A DNA stretch of 64,000 bases, taken from assembly GCA_964590315.1 (NCBI GenBank), contig CAZPVS010000001.1, positions 42,926-106,925 on the forward strand. Reading direction: 5' to 3'. The DNA is from an uncultured Candidatus Saccharibacteria bacterium (GTDB lineage: Bacteria; Patescibacteriota; Saccharimonadia; Saccharimonadales; JALRHH01). The position numbers and the translations under genes are program-made. Under the pieces are notes generated by a model. That model made no database searches. It saw only the letters and a program-made list of their open reading frames with translations, and was not told the origin of the DNA. Shown here piece after piece: positions 3,336 to 56,829 of this stretch. Numbering within the stretch: position 1 is the stretch's first letter; every line of letters starts with the position of its first letter.

Positions 3336-3555
3336 ATAGACTCATCATAAAGCACCTGAGACCGATGGTGCAAATACTCGCCGCTGCAGGGATAGAGATA
3401 CTTATGGTGGGGGTGGTAGGAAAGTTCACGACTGCACCCAGGCTCGGAGTAAACTCCTGCGCTTGGGTTTGTCGACCGAACCTCGGCTACGCCGTCCGGT
3501 TTGACTCCTGCCCACCTCATAGAAAAAGCCCCAGCCAAGGCTGAGACTTATTCTA

Positions 3556-7374: not shown

Positions 7375-7580
7375 AAACTCCTTACTCCCACTGATTGCAG
7401 CGACACGCCACCACCAGAAAAACCCTTTGCCTATTTTTTTGATTTCCCCGCCTAGATTTCTTTTTAGTTGTAAAGGGTGTTTTCTGGTGGGGCGAGCGCG
7501 GGCTTGCCCGCGCAGGCGGCGCGGCTCACATCAGTTTCTTGTGTTAAAATAGGTTCGAGCTTTGGAATACAAAGCCACCA
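7361..7580. repeat. R1b: inverted copy of R1a
   Basis: Exact reverse complement of 3556-3775. It ends with ccacca, which is shared with the start of R2b. Confidence 0.85.
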
Positions 7581-7680
7581 AAATGGAACTTTCTGAGATT
7601 TGGTCGCCCGAATGGGCGGCTTTTTCTCTGGCCGCGCGCAGCGCGAGCCAGCTGTTTGCTTGGGGGGAATTGGGAAATTG
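7575..7680. repeat. R2b: 106-bp inverted copy of the tRNA 3' flank (partner at 9363-9468)
   Basis: Exact reverse complement of 9363-9468 by hand comparison. Confidence 0.8.
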
Positions 7681-7712
7681 ACGCGCCACAGGTGGCGCGT
7701 ATTTTTGTTTTG
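7681..7712 (+). terminator. rho-independent terminator after the cassette operon
   Basis: Palindrome acgcgccac-ag-gtggcgcgt followed by atttttgttttg. Confidence 0.5.
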
Positions 7713-7751
7713 TAAGTCGGCATAGCCGACACGCTCCGCGTCTTCGCTTCG

Positions 7752-7760
7752 TGATATAAT
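7752..7760 (+). promoter_or_regulatory. extended -10 promoter (TGaTATAAT) upstream of the recombinase gene
   Basis: tgatataat sequence. It lies ~135 nt upstream of the ATG at 7896. Confidence 0.4.
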
Positions 7761-7768
7761 GATAAGTG

Positions 7769-7854
7769 CAATACAAATCAATCGGCAAAACTTTTCTATT
7801 TGAGAACTCAAATAGCCGTTTCGCACAAGTTAGGTTTTGCCTGATTTGTATTGC
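7769..7854 (+). promoter_or_regulatory. nested inverted repeats in the recombinase leader; candidate operator, att-like site or structured 5' UTR
   Basis: gcaatacaaatca..gcaaaac pairs with gttttgc..tgatttgtattgc. An inner palindrome ctatttgag-aa-ctcaaatag is enclosed. Confidence 0.4.
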
Positions 7855-7895
7855 AGCGAAGCGGCTTTTTGAGTGCAAGTGGAAAGGTGGCGTAT

Positions 7896-9506
7896 ATGTT
7901 CCCAAAACTCATATATTTCTTGTATGTCCGTAAGAGTACCGATGTAGAGGACAAACAAGTGTTATCTATTGCGGCGCAAATTGCCGAACTCAAAGAGTTC
8001 GCCGCTCGCATGGGCATATACATCGTCGAGGCCATCATAGAAAAGCAGACAGCCAAAAAGCCAGGACGAAAAAAGTTTAACAAAATGCTGGAGCGCATAG
8101 AAAACGGCGAAGCTAACGGGATTTTAGCGTGGATGCCTGATCGACTGTCGCGCAATTCGATAGATAGCGGCAAGATTATTTATATGCTCGACGAGCATGT
8201 TTTACTCGACTTAAAGTTTCCGCATTTCTGGTTTGAGAATACGCCACAAGGAAAATACATGCTGGCTAATGAGTTCAATTCGTCCAAGCAATACGTGGAC
8301 AATTTGTCGGTAAACACCAAGCGAGGGCTACGCCAAAAGGTGCGCGAGGGCTATTACCCAAGTCGTGCGCCGATTGGCTATTATAACGACATCAAGACCA
8401 AGACGGCAAAAGTGGACAAACGGCATGCGCCGATTGTCCGTCAAGCGTTCGAATTGTACGCTGGCGGCGATAAACGATTAGACGAAATCGCGGACTTTCT
8501 GTATGCCAATGGCATACAGACACGCAGCGGTAAAGTGCGCGGCAAGAAAACGACAGGCAAAAAGCCGTATCATAAAAATCGTATCAAGCGTATGCTGACA
8601 AATCCGTTTTATTATGGACATTTTTGCTATCTCGGCGAAATCCATGAGGGCAACCATAAAGCTATTGTCTCGAAACGGCTTTTTGACCAAGTGCAAACGG
8701 TGCTAGAGCGTCGCGGCAAGCCGCGCCACAAGGCGAAGAATGAGCCAAAACCGCTCTGCGGTTTGGTATATTGCTCGTGCGGCATGATGTTCACCTCAGA
8801 ACGTCAGACAAAACGACAGAAAAATGGCAATGTGCATATCTATGATTATTATCGTTGCACGCGCAAGAGCAAGACAGTTGTTTGTCGTGAGCCACATATT
8901 CGCGCCGAAGAGCTGGACAAACAACTGTCTGCGTTACTGGCTGGCTTTTCTTTACCCATTGCGTGGGCGGACAAACTGCGCGAGCTAATGCGCAAGGACG
9001 AGATGAGTGAAAAGGTGGACTATGAACGTATTATCGGGAATGATAAAGACAAAATCGCGCAGTTGTCTGAGAAAATGCAGCGATTGCTTGATGGCTACCT
9101 AGACGGCGACATTGAGCGCGAATTATACCAAGACAAACGCGCGGAATTACTTGGACAGAAGAAACGGCTGGAAGAAAAAATTGAGCAAGCGACGGTGGGC
9201 GTTTTGACGTGGGTCGAACCGATGAATACATGGCTTGAGCGAGCCGTTTCTATCTGTAAAATCGCAAAGAGTGATGACTTACTCGCCAAAAAGTCGCTTT
9301 GCCTCGAAATCTTCGGGTCGAACCTAAAAATGCAAAACAAAAATGTCGTCGCACGCGACGACCAATTTCCCAATTCCCCCCAAGCAAACAGCTGGCTCGC
9401 GCTGCGCGCGGCCAGAGAAAAAGCCGCCCATTCGGGCGACCAAATCTCAGAAAGTTCCATTTTGGTGGGGGTGGTAGGAATCGAACCTACTACCAAGTGG
9501 TTATGA
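7896..9506 (+). CDS. large serine recombinase (resolvase catalytic domain + recombinase domain + zinc ribbon + coiled coil)
   Basis: YVRKSTDVED (Ser nucleophile) and LAWMPDRLSRN resolvase motifs. Zinc ribbon CGLVYCSCG..YYRCTRK..C. Long coiled coil. RBS ggaaaggtgg before the ATG at 7896; the track start 7851 is TTG. The last ~48 codons run through repeat R2a and antisense into the tRNA. Confidence 0.85.
   Translation: MFPKLIYFLYVRKSTDVEDKQVLSIAAQIAELKEFAARMGIYIVEAIIEKQTAKKPGRKKFNKMLERIENGEANGILAWMPDRLSRNSIDSGKIIYMLDEHVLLDLKFPHFWFENTPQGKYMLANEFNSSKQYVDNLSVNTKRGLRQKVREGYYPSRAPIGYYNDIKTKTAKVDKRHAPIVRQAFELYAGGDKRLDEIADFLYANGIQTRSGKVRGKKTTGKKPYHKNRIKRMLTNPFYYGHFCYLGEIHEGNHKAIVSKRLFDQVQTVLERRGKPRHKAKNEPKPLCGLVYCSCGMMFTSERQTKRQKNGNVHIYDYYRCTRKSKTVVCREPHIRAEELDKQLSALLAGFSLPIAWADKLRELMRKDEMSEKVDYERIIGNDKDKIAQLSEKMQRLLDGYLDGDIERELYQDKRAELLGQKKRLEEKIEQATVGVLTWVEPMNTWLERAVSICKIAKSDDLLAKKSLCLEIFGSNLKMQNKNVVARDDQFPNSPQANSWLALRAAREKAAHSGDQISESSILVGVVGIEPTTKWL
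9363..9468. repeat. R2a: native 3' flank of tRNA(CAU), including its CCA end
   Basis: Inverted partner of 7575-7680. Ends at tggtgg, which is the reverse complement of the tRNA ACCACCA terminus. Confidence 0.8.
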
Positions 9507-9538
9507 GCCGCCTGCTCTAACCGATGAGCTACACCCCC
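9463..9538 (-). tRNA. tRNA with CAU anticodon (elongator Met or lysidine-modified Ile2)
   Basis: Reverse complement GGGGGTGTAGCTCATCGGTTAGAGCAGGCGGCTCATAACCACTTGGTAGTAGGTTCGATTCCTACCACCCCCACCA. Cloverleaf has a 7-bp acceptor stem and a GTAGG/CCTAC T-stem, with one mismatch in the anticodon stem. It is close to E. coli tRNA-Ile2. Confidence 0.8.
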
Positions 9539-10148: not shown

Positions 10149-10223
10149 CGCGGGGTAGAGCAGTGGCAGCTCGTGTGGCTCATAACCACAAGGTCGCAGG
10201 TTCGAGTCCTGCCCCCGCTACCA
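10149..10223 (+). tRNA. tRNA-Met (CAU), initiator-like
   Basis: CGCGGGGTAGAGCAGTGGCAGCTCGTGTGGCTCATAACCACAAGGTCGCAGGTTCGAGTCCTGCCCCCGCTACCA. Near-identical in layout to E. coli tRNA-fMet, including the unpaired 1:72 position (C:U). Confidence 0.85.
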
Positions 10224-10226
10224 TTT

Positions 10227-11069
10227 CTATGTAACATAGAAATTACTAGAACCGTTACGCGGTTCTTTTAATTTCAGAGATTCTAGCAATTTAGATTTAA
10301 CAACTTTGTTACTAAAAATAACTAGGTCATCTTCTAACTTAATGTCATGACCGTCTAGGTTATACGCGACACCACCAGCTTCTTGAATTATTAGTAAGCC
10401 TGCGGCTATGTCGTATTTTTGAGCAATACCACTAATCAAAAACTCAACTGCACCTTCTGCTACTGCCGGCAAGTCAAATACTGCAACACCAAAAACACGA
10501 ATCATATTTATTTGGTCTGCCAGTTTGAGCATAAGCTCTGTGCTTTTATTTGTTGATTTACCAACTTTGGCATCAAAGATTCCAATTGCGTCATTGAGGT
10601 CTCGCTCAGATACATTCAAATTACTTTTCTCGCCTGTTAAATTATTTCTATACTGGGCACCTTCACCTTTTGTGGCAGTATAAATCTCTTGGTTAAGGGG
10701 GCGATGGATTAATCCATAGATTGGAATGCCGTCCTTAACGATTGCTAGCTGAAAGCCGCATAGTGGAAGCCCTCTGATATAATTATTGGTACCATCAATA
10801 GGATCTACTACCCATTCAAAACCATTTTTTGATTCGACCCCTACATTTTCTTCTCCATAGAAACCATCGTCTGTAAACTGTTGAAGAACAGTTTTGACCG
10901 CCATGGATTCTATGTTTTTATCAAGTTCCGTAGCATAATCATGTGCTTGCTTTTCTTCGAAACGCATTTTTTTGTGGAATAAATCAGAAATCAGTGAGCC
11001 AGCGTTGCTGGCAATATATTCAGCTACAGGAATACGTTTATTTAATTCTTGTTTTATGTCATCAGTCAT
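10227..11069 (-). CDS. inositol monophosphatase family protein (SuhB/CysQ-like)
   Basis: WVVDPIDGTNNYIRG metal-binding motif. AT-rich gene inside the island. Confidence 0.75.
   Translation of the reverse strand: MTDDIKQELNKRIPVAEYIASNAGSLISDLFHKKMRFEEKQAHDYATELDKNIESMAVKTVLQQFTDDGFYGEENVGVESKNGFEWVVDPIDGTNNYIRGLPLCGFQLAIVKDGIPIYGLIHRPLNQEIYTATKGEGAQYRNNLTGEKSNLNVSERDLNDAIGIFDAKVGKSTNKSTELMLKLADQINMIRVFGVAVFDLPAVAEGAVEFLISGIAQKYDIAAGLLIIQEAGGVAYNLDGHDIKLEDDLVIFSNKVVKSKLLESLKLKEPRNGSSNFYVT
10248..10270. terminator. hairpin terminator after tRNA-fMet
   Basis: agaaccg-ttac-gcggttct followed by tttt. Confidence 0.5.
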
Positions 11070-13966: not shown

Positions 13967-13982
13967 CCTGCCCCCGCTACCA
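13967..13982. repeat. 16-nt direct repeat of the tRNA-fMet 3' end (attR-like island boundary)
   Basis: cctgcccccgctacca is identical to the tRNA T-stem 3' half + acceptor + ACCA. A chance 16-mer match is very unlikely in 64 kb. Confidence 0.55.
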
Positions 13983-16254: not shown

Positions 16255-16503
16255 ATGACCGGACTAGAACAGACATTTTATATTATGGGCATCGTCTTTA
16301 TGAGCGTCATGTTCATCCTCATGATAGCGATGGTAGCGGCGGTGTTTGTGATTCGCGCCAAGATCAATAAGATTCACGATGCGATTGAGGATAAACTGGA
16401 TATTGCGATGACGCTGGCCGAAAAAGGTGGTGAGCTGGCGGCTGTCGCGAGTACGAAAGTGTTTGATACGGCAAAACGAGCCTTTAAATCTTCTAAAAAA
16501 TAA
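16255..16503 (+). CDS. hypothetical membrane-anchored small protein
   Basis: N-terminal TM helix, then an amphipathic helix. Abuts the YihY gene. Confidence 0.35.
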   Translation: MTGLEQTFYIMGIVFMSVMFILMIAMVAAVFVIRAKINKIHDAIEDKLDIAMTLAEKGGELAAVASTKVFDTAKRAFKSSKK

Positions 16504-22189: not shown

Positions 22190-22253
22190 GGTGACATTTA
22201 CCCTTGTGCCTTGTTATACGCCACAAAATGCTTTTGTCAATAATATTCATGCA

Positions 22254-22303
22254 CTAAAAAGACGGACCGATGTCCGTCTTGCTGTTTCCATATGGTAGCG
22301 GCG
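22254..22303. repeat. 50-bp direct repeat (partner at 23524-23573) containing a terminator hairpin and a tRNA 3'-end-like tail
   Basis: ctaaaaagacggacCgatgtccgtcttgctgtttCcatatggtagcggcg versus the partner, with 2 mismatches. The gacggac/gtccgtc hairpin is followed by TTTT on the minus strand. Confidence 0.6.
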
Positions 22304-22375
22304 CTATTAACCACTTGAAACCTGATAAAGCGTGAACTGATTCTAGAGATTCTGGTTATTAGGCGAAAAATACTA

Positions 22376-23299
22376 TCATCGACTGATGCGCACTAAGCGC
22401 GTCTCGCCATTATAAATGACCTTCAAATCAATAATCTTTTCGTTGTTTCTAACGTCTGCTTTAATCTCACCTTGTCTTGTTATGCCTTTGTTTATATCAC
22501 CACCTAGGTCAGATTGCTTATACGGATAGTAGGCATAGTTGAAGGGTGGAACGTAACGAGTACTCAACAACGAATCATAATCAAAATGTGTTTGATCTGT
22601 CTTTAGCTCTCGTCCAGTGTCAGGTAATAATGAAATAGTAATCTTCGAGCTATCGATATTATTGCTGGCGGTCAGTTCATAATTAAGGCTTAGAGTTTGG
22701 TTGTCTGCGATATATTTATTAATCGAGTTACGTGAATCATTTCTCCACTCACAATATCGTCTAGTTGGGTTGTCTTTTTCCCACTGTTCTTCGTCGTGGA
22801 ATACCCATTTGCCCGTCGCCTCATTAAAGTAATCTTGTGGTTGATTATTATCTTCTGGATATTTTGAGCAATCCTCTCTTGCGGTCAAATCTCCATACCT
22901 GCTGATTTTTTCTTGCGGGACGTTAATCTCTACCGCCTTAAAAGATGGTTCTTTTACGGTTAGTACAAAATCTGAAAAATTAATTGCATCGCTAGTGGTA
23001 TAAATCTTATCGTTTAGGTGTTGCTGATACTTGTTGTAGGCAAAGAATCCGCCACATACTAGTAGGAGCAGTAGTATTGGTAATACAAGCCACTTAACGG
23101 ACTTCTTGCCCTTAGACCTCACGACATTTACTGCAAAAAACGCGTACGCAGATAGAAGGATTATTGAGCCCATAATCAGAGACATTCCGATAGTGCTAGA
23201 GGGGTCAATGAAAAAAGATGGTATTAGAATACCCAATATGAGTACAGTCAATCCGATAGCTACTAGATGTACGGGTTTTATATTCAGTCTTTTGCTCAT
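22376..23299 (-). CDS. hypothetical membrane protein (N-terminal TM helices + extracytoplasmic domain)
   Basis: The only gene lying between the two 50-bp direct repeats. Confidence 0.45.
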   Translation of the reverse strand: MSKRLNIKPVHLVAIGLTVLILGILIPSFFIDPSSTIGMSLIMGSIILLSAYAFFAVNVVRSKGKKSVKWLVLPILLLLLVCGGFFAYNKYQQHLNDKIYTTSDAINFSDFVLTVKEPSFKAVEINVPQEKISRYGDLTAREDCSKYPEDNNQPQDYFNEATGKWVFHDEEQWEKDNPTRRYCEWRNDSRNSINKYIADNQTLSLNYELTASNNIDSSKITISLLPDTGRELKTDQTHFDYDSLLSTRYVPPFNYAYYPYKQSDLGGDINKGITRQGEIKADVRNNEKIIDLKVIYNGETRLVRISR

Positions 23300-23523
23300 T
23301 GACTCATAGTATACAAGACTAATAAAAACCCTCTAGTGTGATTTTTGTGTCTCCGCATCAAGCTAAATAAACGTACCCTGTTCATTTAAATCGTGCTAAT
23401 TCGCACTGATATGTCAATGGAATCCACCAAGCCTTAGATAGTAGCTACGATTGCTGATTCCTTATAACTCTGTGGCGGTGTCTCATGCTACTTGCCCCGA
23501 GCAGGTATTGACTTGTCAGTTAA

Positions 23524-23573
23524 CTAAAAAGACGGACTGATGTCCGTCTTGCTGTTTTCATATGGTAGCGGCG
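23524..23573. repeat. 50-bp direct repeat, second copy
   Basis: See 22254-22303. Confidence 0.6.
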
Positions 23574-23604
23574 ACTAGGCTTGAACCACTGACCTCAGGC
23601 TTAT
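23563..23604 (-). pseudogene. degenerate 3' half of the tRNA-Met gene
   Basis: tggtagcggcgactaggcttgaaccactgacctcaggcttat resembles tRNA 23686-23762, but the T-stem no longer pairs. Confidence 0.4.
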
Positions 23605-23668
23605 ATTGCATATAAACTGCAGCCATGCTCGAAGCGAGCTTCTGCGCGTAGCTTTGTTTATGAGTCCT

Positions 23669-23782
23669 ACAATTCAGAACATTTTTGGTAGCGGCGACTA
23701 GGCTTGAACTAGTGACCTCAGGCTTATGAGTCCTGCGCTCTAACCAGCTGAGCTACGCCGCCCCAAAAATGTTCTGAATTGT
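23669..23782. repeat. 18-bp inverted repeats immediately flanking the tRNA-Met gene
   Basis: acaattcagaacattttt on one side and aaaaatgttctgaattgt on the other. Confidence 0.5.
23686..23762 (-). tRNA. tRNA-Met (CAU), elongator-like
   Basis: Reverse complement GGCGGCGTAGCTCAGCTGGTTAGAGCGCAGGACTCATAAGCCTGAGGTCACTAGTTCAAGCCTAGTCGCCGCTACCA. Closely resembles E. coli elongator tRNA-Met. Confidence 0.8.
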
Positions 23783-23786
23783 TAAT

Positions 23787-23812
23787 GCTCTAACCAGCTG
23801 AGCTACGCCGCC
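23787..23812 (-). pseudogene. partial duplicate of the tRNA-Met 5' end (acceptor + D-arm)
   Basis: gctctaaccagctgagctacgccgcc is identical to the 5' portion of the tRNA. Confidence 0.4.
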
Positions 23813-23860
23813 ATGAATAACAGGGGTTAATATAACAGATTTACGAGCGGTTGCATAGTG

Positions 23861-24373
23861 TTATAGAAACCGGACGATTTCGGCGTTGGCAAAGTGACCG
23901 GCACCACGGAAGGGAATTTCTGGGTTAACGACATGACGGAGGGCTCGGCCAGTTGAGCCGTGGCCGATAACGAGAATGGTATCGCCCGGGAGAGTCTGCA
24001 GCCACTCGTATGCTTGTTGGGCTCGGGCAAATAAATCCTGGCTTTTTTCCGCACCTTCAATGGTGTCCATGTCTATATCAGGGTAATACGGCTGCGCTTC
24101 CAGCACGCCGAATGTGCGCTCAATCAAGAGGTCGCTGGTGTAAATCTTTTCGGGTGGGTACCCGATACTTTCTGCAACAATCTCTGCTGTTTCAATAGCC
24201 CGGCTCATCGACGAAGCAGCAATACAGTCAATACCAAGTGATTGTGCTGCTTCACCAGCAAGTCGTGCTTGGTGACGGCCTTGTTCCGTTAAAGGTGTTT
24301 CGGTGCGTCCGGCGAATAGTCCTGCGATATTCAGCTCGGTTAAACCATGCCGCATAAAATAAAGTCTTCTCAT
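23861..24373 (-). CDS. histidine phosphatase family protein (phosphoglycerate-mutase-like)
   Basis: N-terminal RHG motif (MRHGLTELN). Confidence 0.7.
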   Translation of the reverse strand: MRRLYFMRHGLTELNIAGLFAGRTETPLTEQGRHQARLAGEAAQSLGIDCIAASSMSRAIETAEIVAESIGYPPEKIYTSDLLIERTFGVLEAQPYYPDIDMDTIEGAEKSQDLFARAQQAYEWLQTLPGDTILVIGHGSTGRALRHVVNPEIPFRGAGHFANAEIVRFL

Positions 24374-24391: not shown

Positions 24392-25267
24392 ATGAATATC
24401 AACATTGCACCGGGAACGTATGTGGTGGCCGTGTCCGGCGGGGTGGACAGCATGGTTTTGCTTGATGTGCTTCGGCAACAGCCAGGGGTAAAGCTCATTG
24501 TGGCGCATTTTGATCATGGCATCAGGCATGATTCTCGAAGCGATCGAGAACTGGTGCAGCAGACAGCAAAAAGCCATAGTTTGCCATTCGTGTATCACGA
24601 AGGCAAGCTTGGTCCGGCGGCGAGCGAAGATGAAGCACGCATCGCTCGATACGCGTTTTTGCATGCGGTGAAAGATGCCGCCCGCGCCCGAGCTATTGTA
24701 ACCGCCCATCATCACAATGACGCGCTCGAAACGGCTATCATTAATATGATGCGCGGGACGGGGAGAAAGGGTTTGAGCGCACTTAGTTCAACGGAAGCAC
24801 TCCACCGACCATTATTGCATCTGACCAAAGAGCACATCCATGCCTATGCCCGTGATCAGGGATTGGTTTGGCGAGAGGATAGCACGAATCAAGATACCCG
24901 CTACCTCCGGAACTACGTCCGGCATAAACTACTCGCTCAATTTACCGAAGCGGATAGGCATAAGCTGCGGGATATTATTGCGCACATAGAACAGACTAAT
25001 AGGGAGCTGGATACGGAACTAGTGCATTACCTGCATGTCCAGCCGGCACTCGATAGATTAAGCCGGCATGAGTTTGTGCGCTTGCCACACGCAGTGGCAA
25101 AAGAAGTGATGGCAACATGGTTGCGCCGACATGGGATACGCGATTTTGATCAAAAGATGCTCGAGCGACTGGTCGTCGGTGCCAAGACGTATCAGCATGG
25201 CAAGAAAATAGACGTGGTTAAAGGCAGGCACATTCATGTCAGCCGACACCATTTGGCACTCAGGTAA
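24392..25267 (+). CDS. tilS: tRNA(Ile)-lysidine synthetase
   Basis: PP-loop SGGVDSMVLL. N-type ATP-pyrophosphatase layout. Confidence 0.85.
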   Translation: MNINIAPGTYVVAVSGGVDSMVLLDVLRQQPGVKLIVAHFDHGIRHDSRSDRELVQQTAKSHSLPFVYHEGKLGPAASEDEARIARYAFLHAVKDAARARAIVTAHHHNDALETAIINMMRGTGRKGLSALSSTEALHRPLLHLTKEHIHAYARDQGLVWREDSTNQDTRYLRNYVRHKLLAQFTEADRHKLRDIIAHIEQTNRELDTELVHYLHVQPALDRLSRHEFVRLPHAVAKEVMATWLRRHGIRDFDQKMLERLVVGAKTYQHGKKIDVVKGRHIHVSRHHLALR

Positions 25268-56193: not shown

Positions 56194-56570
56194 GTTTTGC
56201 TTTTTTACTGGTTATGCTTATAGTACGTCTTTCCTGCAGATTGGTCTAGTATTAGAGTTCTATGTAAATCAATGTTCAGGAATATCTACAATAAAATCAT
56301 TCAAAAATAATCTCAGTACTCATGTTCAATCCCCAAGACAGCTTCCGTTAAATGAAAAAGTCCTACGTTTTCAGGCAGAAATTATTTCAATGGAGGGATA
56401 GGAGGACTCTCTCACATTCCGCGGGACTAGAACTTCTGCCACGGCAGCATAGTTGCCAGGTGAAAATTCTCTTGCAAAATGCCACTGGCAATCCCGTTCA
56501 AGTCCTCACTGAATACTGGGCCAAATAAAATACCCACTTTTTAGGGGGGCACTTTATTTGGAGGGTCCAG

Positions 56571-56596
56571 TGGGACTCGGTCACTTCCAGCGACCC
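56571..56596 (-). pseudogene. duplicated 3'-end fragment of tRNA-Lys
   Basis: tatttggagggtccagtgggactcg is identical to the tRNA 3' end plus 8 nt of flank. Confidence 0.4.
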
Positions 56597-56752
56597 CGTA
56601 GCAACATCTTTGCAAACTAGTTTGCAAGAGTTGACTCCCTTGCAAAATGCCACTGGCATTTTTCACCCCCAACACCATTCTGGCGCGTCGTGGGTTAAAG
56701 CTCAATAGAACTGCCAAATAGAAAACCCCACCTTTCGGCGAGGTTCTCTATT

Positions 56753-56829
56753 TGGAGGGTCCAGTGGGACTCGAACCCACGACACCCTGCTTAAAAGGCA
56801 GGTGCTCTAACCGGCTGAGCTATGGACCC
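56753..56829 (-). tRNA. tRNA-Lys (UUU)
   Basis: Reverse complement GGGTCCATAGCTCAGCCGGTTAGAGCACCTGCCTTTTAAGCAGGGTGTCGTGGGTTCGAGTCCCACTGGACCCTCCA. Perfect anticodon stem CCTGC/GCAGG. Confidence 0.85.

Follow-up and report, generated by a model that had tools for sequence, protein, structure and literature searches.

In a 64-kb stretch of Saccharibacteria DNA (the window), a gene for a tRNA with anticodon CAU is cut into three pieces around a complete second tRNA(CAU) gene, and a segment of low G+C content (GC) with one open reading frame (ORF) is lodged at its 3′ end. In our reading, to which we give a probability of about 0.6, at least three DNA insertions, made at different times, have left their debris in what is a single tRNA(CAU) transcription unit. 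Homologs of TilS assign the window to Saccharibacteria (TM7), the nearest species representatives being 52–67% identical. The locus lies on the minus strand, and its parts are given here in tRNA sense, from high to low coordinate. They form two layers, the tRNA pieces at 23563–23812 and the low-GC segment at 22253–23573.

The first layer opens with a promoter-like block, AAATCTGTTATATTAACCCCTGTTAT, at 23817–23842, a candidate promoter by its position upstream of the outer tRNA gene. Piece 1 of the outer gene (23786–23812) follows, comprising nt 1–26 plus an A, and its 26 nt at 23787–23812 are an exact copy of the 5′ end of the intact tRNA. The trinucleotide TTA and the left arm of a 20-bp inverted repeat (23763–23785) then form the leader of the intact, inner tRNA at 23686–23762. 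This functional copy folds into a cloverleaf with anticodon CAT in ARAGORN, encodes its own CCA, and scores 64.1 bits against Rfam RF00005 (threshold 29). The right arm (23669–23688), 100% complementary to the left one and found only here in the window, consists of the CCA of the tRNA and 17 nt of trailer. Next come piece 2 of the outer gene, AGGACTCATAA (23658–23668), which holds the 5′ strand of the anticodon stem and the loop, a 53-bp insert in the outer anticodon loop that we call F (23605–23657), with ATAA on each side and a palindromic core, and piece 3 (23563–23604). Counted straight from the start of the tRNA, piece 2 equals nt 29–39, which are nt 28–38 in standard numbering. Piece 3 equals nt 36–77 and is identical to the intact tRNA at 40 of 42 positions, both differences falling in the 5′ strand of the T stem. 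Beyond piece 3 lie a terminator hairpin, 1.22 kb with one ORF, and a second copy of the tRNA 3′ end and trailer.

A first-pass annotation, made from the sequence alone, had already placed the intact tRNA, the 26-nt 5′ copy and the degenerate 3′ half at these same coordinates. It also recorded the inverted repeats flanking the tRNA, which are indeed perfect and measure 20 nt where it gave 18. It overlooked the 11-nt piece 2 and a decayed T-arm-like stretch at ~22304–22330, which by eye lies just inside the distal copy of a 51-nt direct repeat described below (…CAAGTGGTTAATAG / CGCCGCTACCA).

Pieces 1, 2 and 3 are complementary, non-overlapping parts of one older gene. Exactly between nt 26 and nt 27 of that outer gene sits a 117-bp insert, a complete tRNA gene within perfect 20-bp inverted repeats. 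When the outer pieces are joined, ARAGORN recovers a cloverleaf of 76 nt in the window and of 77 nt in the related locus L001, which comes from a metagenome-assembled genome (MAG) of another study and of a different species (TilS 67% and His_Phos 59% identical to the window). L001 aligns at 86% over window positions 23842 to 23596, with identical order and junctions. Its junction is exact: the upstream piece ends in GAGCA (nt 26), the insert follows, and the outer gene resumes with CAGGGC, reading CAGGGCTCATAA from nt 27 at the position of piece 2. L001 additionally carries a 75-nt two-hairpin insert in the variable loop. Because a different species has the same layout and junctions, the nested arrangement is older than the genome in which we found it.

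The acceptor stem of L001 establishes which pieces belong together. Its upstream acceptor strand, GGCGATG, pairs with the distal CATCGCT, and the acceptor strands of the intact tRNA that lies between are GGCGGCG/CGCCGCT. The upstream and distal pieces thus belong to one gene, and the intact tRNA is a complete insert. We rejected the alternative in which the 5′ half of the intact tRNA is native and only the 3′ parts were displaced, as the native gene would then have a mismatched acceptor stem.

The 51-, 42-, 26- and 20-nt repeats of the locus cannot be produced by chance. All remaining repeats in 12 kb are at most 23 nt long and at most 81% identical, with the exception of one of 17 nt at 88%, which contains an 11-mer at 16331. 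A single 11-mer match is at chance level across the window (an estimated ~2 expected, with one unrelated copy at 16331). What makes piece 2 at 23658 credible is that it lies in the right place, falls in the right order among the pieces and is conserved in L001. The 11-mer at 16331, TGGTAGCGGCG, was considered as an island boundary and rejected, being inside an ORF and at chance frequency.

The outer gene is the native one and the source of the promoter and of the only terminator. The promoter and tRNA 5′ end of the window (23840–23787) recur at 98% over 54 nt in locus L013, where they directly precede a single plain tRNA. The promoter-like block has an identical 26 nt in L001, and the same block stands in L015, L018, L040 and L082. 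The only terminator-like hairpin called in a scan of the tRNA unit (23529–23550) follows the outer 3′ piece, and by eye it is a homolog of the terminator found at L082, a plain locus. The same scan of the tRNA unit found no promoter-like site between the pieces. With no signals of its own found, the inner tRNA depends on the old promoter and terminator.

The outer gene itself is a relic in decay, and conversion from the inner copy has probably replaced part of it. In the window, nt 27 is missing from the outer copy, and its T stem is a hybrid, AGTGG/CTAGT, with one mismatch and one G-U pair; the 5′ strand AGTGG is that of L001 and the 3′ strand CTAGT that of the window's inner tRNA. We infer from this hybrid a gene-conversion tract from the inner copy over nt 54–77, and such conversion would also account for the 100% identity of the 26-nt piece. 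The outer copy of L001 has a C at the nearly invariant U8, and in L015/L078 the leader holds, by eye, a decayed outer 5′ piece (…GCTCGTGCATAATTAGAGCA CAAT…). Selective upkeep of the split copy is accordingly not seen at nt 27 and the T stem in the window, at position 8 in L001, or in the 5′ piece of L015. Rfam searches over 22200–23900 at E values up to 10 returned only tRNA and chance-level matches and no known ribozyme or intron family, bulge-helix-bulge motifs not being searched for explicitly. Across the locus and the L006 contig described below, Rfam at the gathering threshold and at E up to 10 likewise gave only tRNAs and chance-level matches.

The inverted repeat (23669–23688 / 23763–23782) lets the sequence just upstream of the tRNA pair with the tRNA's own CCA and trailer in a helix of ~20 bp. 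The window, L001, L040, L015/L078 and L018 all have this helix, as probably does L080, a truncated locus; the helix is absent from the other tRNAs examined, from the plain loci and from most of the 59 tRNA(CAU) loci found in a metagenome scan with the tRNA itself as query. Counted by hand, pairing is 20/20 in the window, 18 Watson–Crick pairs and one G-U of 20 in L001, 15 and one of 20 in L040, 21 and one of 23 in L015, and 17 and one of 21 in L018. Several pairs are doubly changed between lineages, and most mismatches lie 9–11 bp from the tRNA. Because of these compensatory changes, we conclude that the pairing is maintained. When the whole 296-nt unit is folded to minimum free energy, the helix dominates the structure and nothing further emerges.

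Most likely, we infer, the helix acts in RNA, as a processing stem or as a stem that insulates the tRNA against mispairing with its tRNA-like leader. Alternatives at the level of DNA may also apply, namely recombinase half-sites or conversion between the arms. In L015 the arm extends inside the tRNA, from C71, with an offset of 3 nt; a coaxial helix by design would explain this less well than an inverted duplication of the 3′ end and trailer. Allowing up to 3 mismatches, the 64-kb window has no other copy of the 20-nt arm, and among 85 loci it is found only at the homologous locus in L001, L011 and L040. As a dispersed terminal repeat it was rejected, being confined to this locus.

The core of F is an imperfect palindrome, GAAGC-TC-GCTTC. 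F is ~83% identical in L001, where the core has changed symmetrically to GAAGT-TT-ACTTC, and L032 has a homologous core (…ACGCACAGAAGCTTGCTTCGAGCATGACTG…) within the T loop of a 3′ tRNA piece that has been displaced. It has no Rfam match. As an RNA hairpin cannot close on two bases, F looks more like a dyad in DNA, a putative protein-binding site. It is single-copy in the window and otherwise present only in L001, L011 and L032 among 79 loci; we therefore rejected it as a dispersed repeat of the repetitive extragenic palindromic (REP) type or of the miniature inverted-repeat transposable element (MITE) type.

The second layer is a segment of ~1.27 kb bounded by 51-nt direct repeats. The proximal repeat (23523–23573, with its hairpin at 23529–23550) and the distal one (22253–22303, hairpin copy at 22259–22280) each comprise tRNA nt 67–77, the last 11 nt of the tRNA, and 40 nt of trailer including the terminator hairpin, and they agree at 49 of 51 positions (96%). 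The first-pass annotation had reported this repeat as 50 bp long; the repeat is real, and only its length needed correcting. Between the copies lie 1.22 kb of cargo (22304–23522), and the GC of the segment is 0.38–0.41 against ~0.50 in the flanks. As had been claimed, the repeats frame a single gene: the one real ORF, at 22376–23299, encodes 307 aa with N-terminal hydrophobic stretches and no recombinase domain, and no protein with Resolvase, Recombinase and Zn-ribbon domains stands beside the tRNA at this locus. The protein has no match in Pfam, PHROGs or PADLOC. Among its 55 homologs, those with a source name are all from Saccharibacteria, the best named relative being Candidatus Saccharimonas aalborgensis.

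The relatives of this gene tie the cassette to mobile islands. In 4/4 independent contexts (L006/L007, L009 and L083–85), a homolog lies at ~0.5–1 kb from a large serine recombinase in divergent orientation, and in two of the four a small HTH_17 ORF separates them. The 3′ ends of these recombinases overlap a tRNA gene for Arg-TCG, Arg-GCG or Pro-TGG. The ORFs run antisense through the adjacent tRNA (L006 3455–5067, L007 3465–5074, L009 3613–5523 and L083 3611–5524), and that of L083 covers the whole tRNA; the attachment site thus apparently lies within the 3′ coding end of the recombinase. At this tRNA(CAU), tblastn with the four island recombinases and the small HTH ORFs found no recombinase or excisionase remnant in 22200–23900. 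Nucleotide homology between the cassette and its relatives ends at the limits of the ORF. The cassette is absent from this tRNA in L001 and in ~70 other loci. The view that a one-gene cassette was inserted at the tRNA 3′ end, put forward in the first-pass annotation, is borne out by the low GC, the absence in relatives, the occurrence of the gene as island cargo and the genome-wide habit described below. The cassette is best read as cargo left by a serine-recombinase island, or as a non-autonomous derivative of one.

The anatomy of the locus, its common ancestry with L001, the tie between the cargo gene and islands, and the use of tRNA genes as a hotspot are shown; the history that they suggest is provisional, both in the order of events and in the enzyme behind each insertion. 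The original outer gene would have been cut between nt 26 and 27 by the 117-bp insert (TTA, arm, tRNA(CAU), arm). The inserted gene would then have become the working copy, driven by the old promoter and excised from a precursor of ~290 nt. The 53-bp palindromic F would next have entered the old anticodon loop, both insertions preceding the split from the L001 species. Much later, the ~1.27-kb foreign segment would have integrated at tRNA nt 67–77 and the terminator, duplicating 51 bp.

Other explanations compete with a native gene split by insertions. That the fragments are attachment-type partial duplications from successive integrations, around an original tRNA repaired by element-borne copies, is unlikely. 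It draws on the tRNA 3′-end repeats that bound inserted DNA at 4/4 tRNAs of the window, on displaced copies that start in the anticodon arm in other lineages (L043, nt 30–77; L072), and on the 42-nt and 51-nt repeats, which match that pattern. However, integration directed at the 3′ end yields no upstream 5′ fragment; the fragment stops at nt 26 and the following piece starts from nt 27, and the distal CATCGCT of L001 is unpairable with the intact GGCGGCG and pairs perfectly with the upstream GGCGATG. The first-pass annotation had explained the tRNA-proximal fragments by such successive, duplicating integrations, and on this point it does not hold, the pieces being complementary parts of one gene split by two inserts and the same ancient layout recurring in a relative with identical junctions. 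Tandem duplications of tRNA genes are common, and the fragments are in the right order and orientation for a tandem triplication followed by two internal deletions, which would reduce copy 1 to its 5′ part and copy 3 to its 3′ part and spare copy 2. This is distinctly improbable: two independent deletions would need end points coinciding at nt 26/27, no intermediate tandem array appears among ~70 loci, and the inverted CCA-plus-trailer copy upstream of the intact tRNA, the difference between outer and inner trailers, and an L001 outer acceptor allele that differs from the inner one on both strands are all left unexplained. Short repeats of 26–51 nt can mislead assemblers, and five related contigs (L012, L017, L019, L020 and L080) terminate inside this tRNA; even so, an assembly artefact from repeated tRNA sequence is hardly credible. 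A Logan assembly of SRR15237813 (L011) matches window positions 23910 to 17009 with 1 mismatch in 6,902 nt, so that the layout is not the artefact of one assembler, and the unrelated MAG of another study repeats it in diverged sequence.

Two further alternatives give the split gene or its insert an active role. The outer tRNA might still function as a bacterial split or multi-intron gene whose intervening sequences are removed from the transcript, given that the joined pieces form a full cloverleaf, that two acceptor-stem pairs are compensated in L001, that the intervening sequences are conserved and that F offers, by eye, a possible anticodon-intron-like pairing, CAUAAAC / GUUUAU. We consider this very improbable. 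The intact inner copy renders the outer one redundant, the lesions of the outer gene described above (nt 27 and the conversion-derived T-stem mismatch in the window, C8 in L001, the decayed 5′ piece in L015) and the negative intron and ribozyme searches speak against it, the innermost covarying pair of F would close a 2-nt loop that is impossible in RNA, and we know of no bacterial machinery for such splicing. It is also quite unlikely that the tRNA bounded by inverted repeats is a non-autonomous mobile unit, MITE-like or mobilised by a recombinase, that inserts repeatedly into its cognate gene. Such a unit would suit the perfect 20-bp terminal repeats without coding capacity, the uneven decay of the outer pieces between lineages, the ~83% identity of non-tRNA parts between distant genomes, the mixing of repeat-bearing and plain alleles across both tRNA allele groups, and the perfect 106-nt inverted repeat, starting from a tRNA CCACCA, that flanks the window's serine recombinase gene. 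Against it stand the absent target duplication (GAGCA/TTA… and …TTGT/CAGG have no duplicated bases in common except those that any normal tRNA requires), the restriction of the arm to this locus, the identical junctions of window and L001, which fit one event, and the L015 arm, which reaches into the tRNA with its 3-nt offset.

Several observations also weigh against our own account of one native gene split by insertions of different ages. The insertion of a complete tRNA shows no target-site duplication and no recombinase, and its arm is not dispersed. Only two well-preserved nested loci (the window and L001) and one decayed locus (L015/L078) were found, and they do not distinguish a single origin of the block from its repeated insertion or horizontal transfer. 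The arms and F are ~83% identical between the window and L001, whereas neighbouring proteins are only 59–67% identical; such identity of non-tRNA parts points to constraint or recent transfer and not to a neutral relic. For the cassette, the 51-bp repeat is much longer than the 13–25-nt repeats of the other tRNA-linked insertions here, recombinase remnants are missing, and the link to serine-recombinase islands is through the cargo gene only. No empty-site allele comes from a very close relative, the L012 contig ending early.

tRNA genes serve as integration sites throughout this window, where four of four have direct repeats of their 3′ end downstream. A tRNA-Met at 9463–9538 (minus strand) is overlapped by the 3′ end of a large serine recombinase ORF at 7851–9506 (plus strand) with Resolvase, Recombinase and Zn-ribbon domains. 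An 18-nt direct repeat of its 3′ end (3405–3422 / 9463–9480) bounds an island of ~6 kb whose cargo includes the recombinase, a thymidylate kinase, a DegT-type aminotransferase and an oxidoreductase. The initiator-like tRNA at 10149–10223 has a 16-nt copy of its 3′ end at 13967–13982, and the 3.7 kb thus bounded (GC ~0.40) hold an inositol monophosphatase, an EamA transporter and an ORF of no assigned function, with no recombinase present. The tRNA-Lys at 56753–56829 has a 25-nt copy 173 nt downstream. Taken together with the tRNA(CAU) locus, this is a tRNA integration hotspot with mostly ordinary scarring and one unusual nested tRNA-in-tRNA.

The recombinase gene at 7851–9506 is itself flanked by a perfect 106-nt inverted repeat (7575–7680 / 9363–9468). 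Each copy starts with the CCACCA of the tRNA and continues into the trailer, and by eye a degenerate T-arm-like stretch precedes the copy at 7575. L007 has the same design, with 44 C-terminal recombinase codons repeated in inverted orientation. The interval 7575–9538 may be an invertible recombinase cassette, or the recombinase gene may contain an attachment site.

Related loci show further scars. Several metagenomic tRNA(CAU) loci carry downstream 3′ fragments. L043 has a 628-nt insert with one ORF downstream of tRNA(CAU), bounded by 48-nt repeats (tRNA nt 30–77); in L073 the tRNA sequence diverges after nt 50; and at L018 3660–3830 a displaced 3′ piece is split by a 90-nt hairpin-rich insert and the trailer arm is duplicated. 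A metagenome scan for the pattern of a 5′ fragment upstream of an intact tRNA gave no match, and further relatives reached through His_Phos homologs have plain or truncated loci. The nearest relative is L012 (1083–1716 against window 23861–24373, His_Phos 94%), in which the place taken by the tRNA complex in the window, directly after His_Phos, is occupied by a NUDIX gene. Even very close genomes thus differ by rearranged gene order around tRNA(CAU).

The scar of the window's tRNA-Lys contains two copies of a ~92-nt module of three hairpins (56579–56669 and 56410–56500, minus strand), and further copies occur at L006 10506–10597 and 10818–10910, L004 3814–3904 and L072 10401–10491. Across these six sequences only, in an alignment fitted to the model, covariation is strong, with 97% of cells paired, 22 of 33 pairs doubly changed and one invariant G-U pair; none of 500 shuffles scored as high, and the paired fraction fell to 28–44% when the model was slid. 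Five of the six copies lie within the T loop of a displaced tRNA 3′ piece, followed by ~20 nt of tRNA 3′ end and a terminator. The host tRNAs are Lys-UUU, Lys-CUU, CAU (twice) and one of no assigned type. In the anticodon loop of the window, the corresponding place is taken by F. The module has no Rfam match; it may be part of a phage-type attachment site (attP), a T-loop-specific insertion element or a guide-like scaffold.

The L006 contig, which resembles Ca. Saccharimonas aalborgensis, offers a parallel at 10485–10930, where a tRNA-Lys(CUU) is cut up around a complete new tRNA-Lys. The old gene is interrupted by two of the ~92-nt modules and by an insert bearing the new copy. By eye, the new tRNA has a −10-like box of its own. 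A 19-bp palindrome, of which its CTCCA end is a part, comes after it.

A broader proposal, rather unlikely in our estimate, is that Saccharibacteria contain small mobile units, non-coding and structured, whose specific targets are the hairpin loops and junctions of tRNA genes. With the same reservation, the candidate units would be F (anticodon loop and T loop), the ~92-nt module (at least three tRNA species) and the tRNA gene bounded by inverted repeats. If this were so, the nested tRNA would serve as a replacement cassette, either rescuing the invaded gene or selfishly taking its place, and the layout of a scaffold plus 20 nt could point to targeting of tRNA genes that is guided by RNA or by structure.

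Several known systems resemble parts of this locus. tRNA genes are classic landing sites of mobile islands; genomic islands and prophages integrate there, also as tandem arrays and degenerate remnants. Cis-mobilizable elements (CIMEs) flanked by attachment sites and lacking an integrase accompany ICESt1 of Streptococcus thermophilus. Like a CIME, the cassette is a short cargo segment bounded by attachment-like repeats, without a recombinase, beside a site used by autonomous elements; it differs from CIMEs in repeat length and recombinase family, and its mobilization in trans would be hypothetical. Archaea have split, multi-intron and permuted tRNA genes, as in the split tRNAs of Nanoarchaeum and the multi-intron tRNAs of Thermoproteales. 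The tRNA(CAU) shares with these a division into 3–4 pieces and a long helix of leader/trailer type beside a junction, but here the host is a bacterium, no intron family was detected, the split copy is decayed and a complete tRNA lies inside. Stems formed by leader and trailer in rRNA operons are RNase III processing sites. They too are helices of ~20 bp that flank a mature stable RNA and are kept by covariation, whereas the present one, a putative cleavage site, encloses a single tRNA with its CCA. MITEs and foldback elements are likewise short and non-coding with perfect terminal inverted repeats (20/20 here), but the 117-bp insert is single-copy, has no target-site duplication and carries a tRNA gene as cargo.

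The closest framework is the tycheposon model, in which tRNA-proximal islands of Prochlorococcus are built from cargo left by integrative elements, a minority of them using large serine recombinases (bioRxiv 10.1101/2020.12.28.424599). As in such islands, direct repeats of the tRNA 3′ part surround foreign DNA of odd composition, the intact tRNA stands at the proximal end, and a streamlined genome holds integrase-less cargo beside a tRNA, with partial tRNAs dispersed downstream. Unlike in those islands, the cassette has no recombinase, the repeat runs 40 nt past the tRNA, and the large serine recombinases of related islands overlap the tRNA by their 3′ coding ends. The model predicts neither an upstream 5′ fragment nor a complete tRNA nested in an old gene. 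A literature search on tRNA introns, serine recombinases at tRNAs and T-loop insertions in Saccharibacteria and the candidate phyla radiation (CPR) found nothing specific beyond this framework. The general phenomenon, a tRNA integration hotspot, is thus known already; what is unusual is that a complete gene is nested between 20-bp arms that covary, that serine recombinases form the context and that the loops of displaced tRNAs hold structured inserts.

Serine-recombinase islands, and not tyrosine-integrase elements, appear to be active in this ultra-small, host-dependent bacterium. They appear to leave recombinase-less cargo at every tRNA examined, and in this way a reduced genome could plausibly gain genes. 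An essential tRNA gene would seem replaceable by a full copy inserted inside it, which reuses the old promoter and terminator and keeps a covarying 20-bp helix. Should the helix and the small structured inserts turn out to be active and not mere scars, they would represent new tRNA-targeting elements and new structured nucleic acids.

At three other loci, L026, L052 (~117 nt upstream of the tRNA) and L062 (~122 nt), an upstream 5′ fragment comprises tRNA nt 1–19 and is followed, after ~30–35 nt, by the inverted 3′ part of the D arm, GCTCTAACCAGC. This arrangement suggests an inversion with its breakpoint at the palindromic CAGCTG of the D loop.

The tRNA(CAU) at 23686–23762 lies ~630 bp from tilS (lysidine synthetase; 24392–25267), and the window has two other CAU tRNAs, one initiator-like and one elongator-like. 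This neighbour and these two genes suggest that it is a tRNA-Ile2 rather than the tRNA-Met of the first-pass annotation. All members of this tRNA(CAU) family share an A31–G39 mismatch at the base of the anticodon stem.

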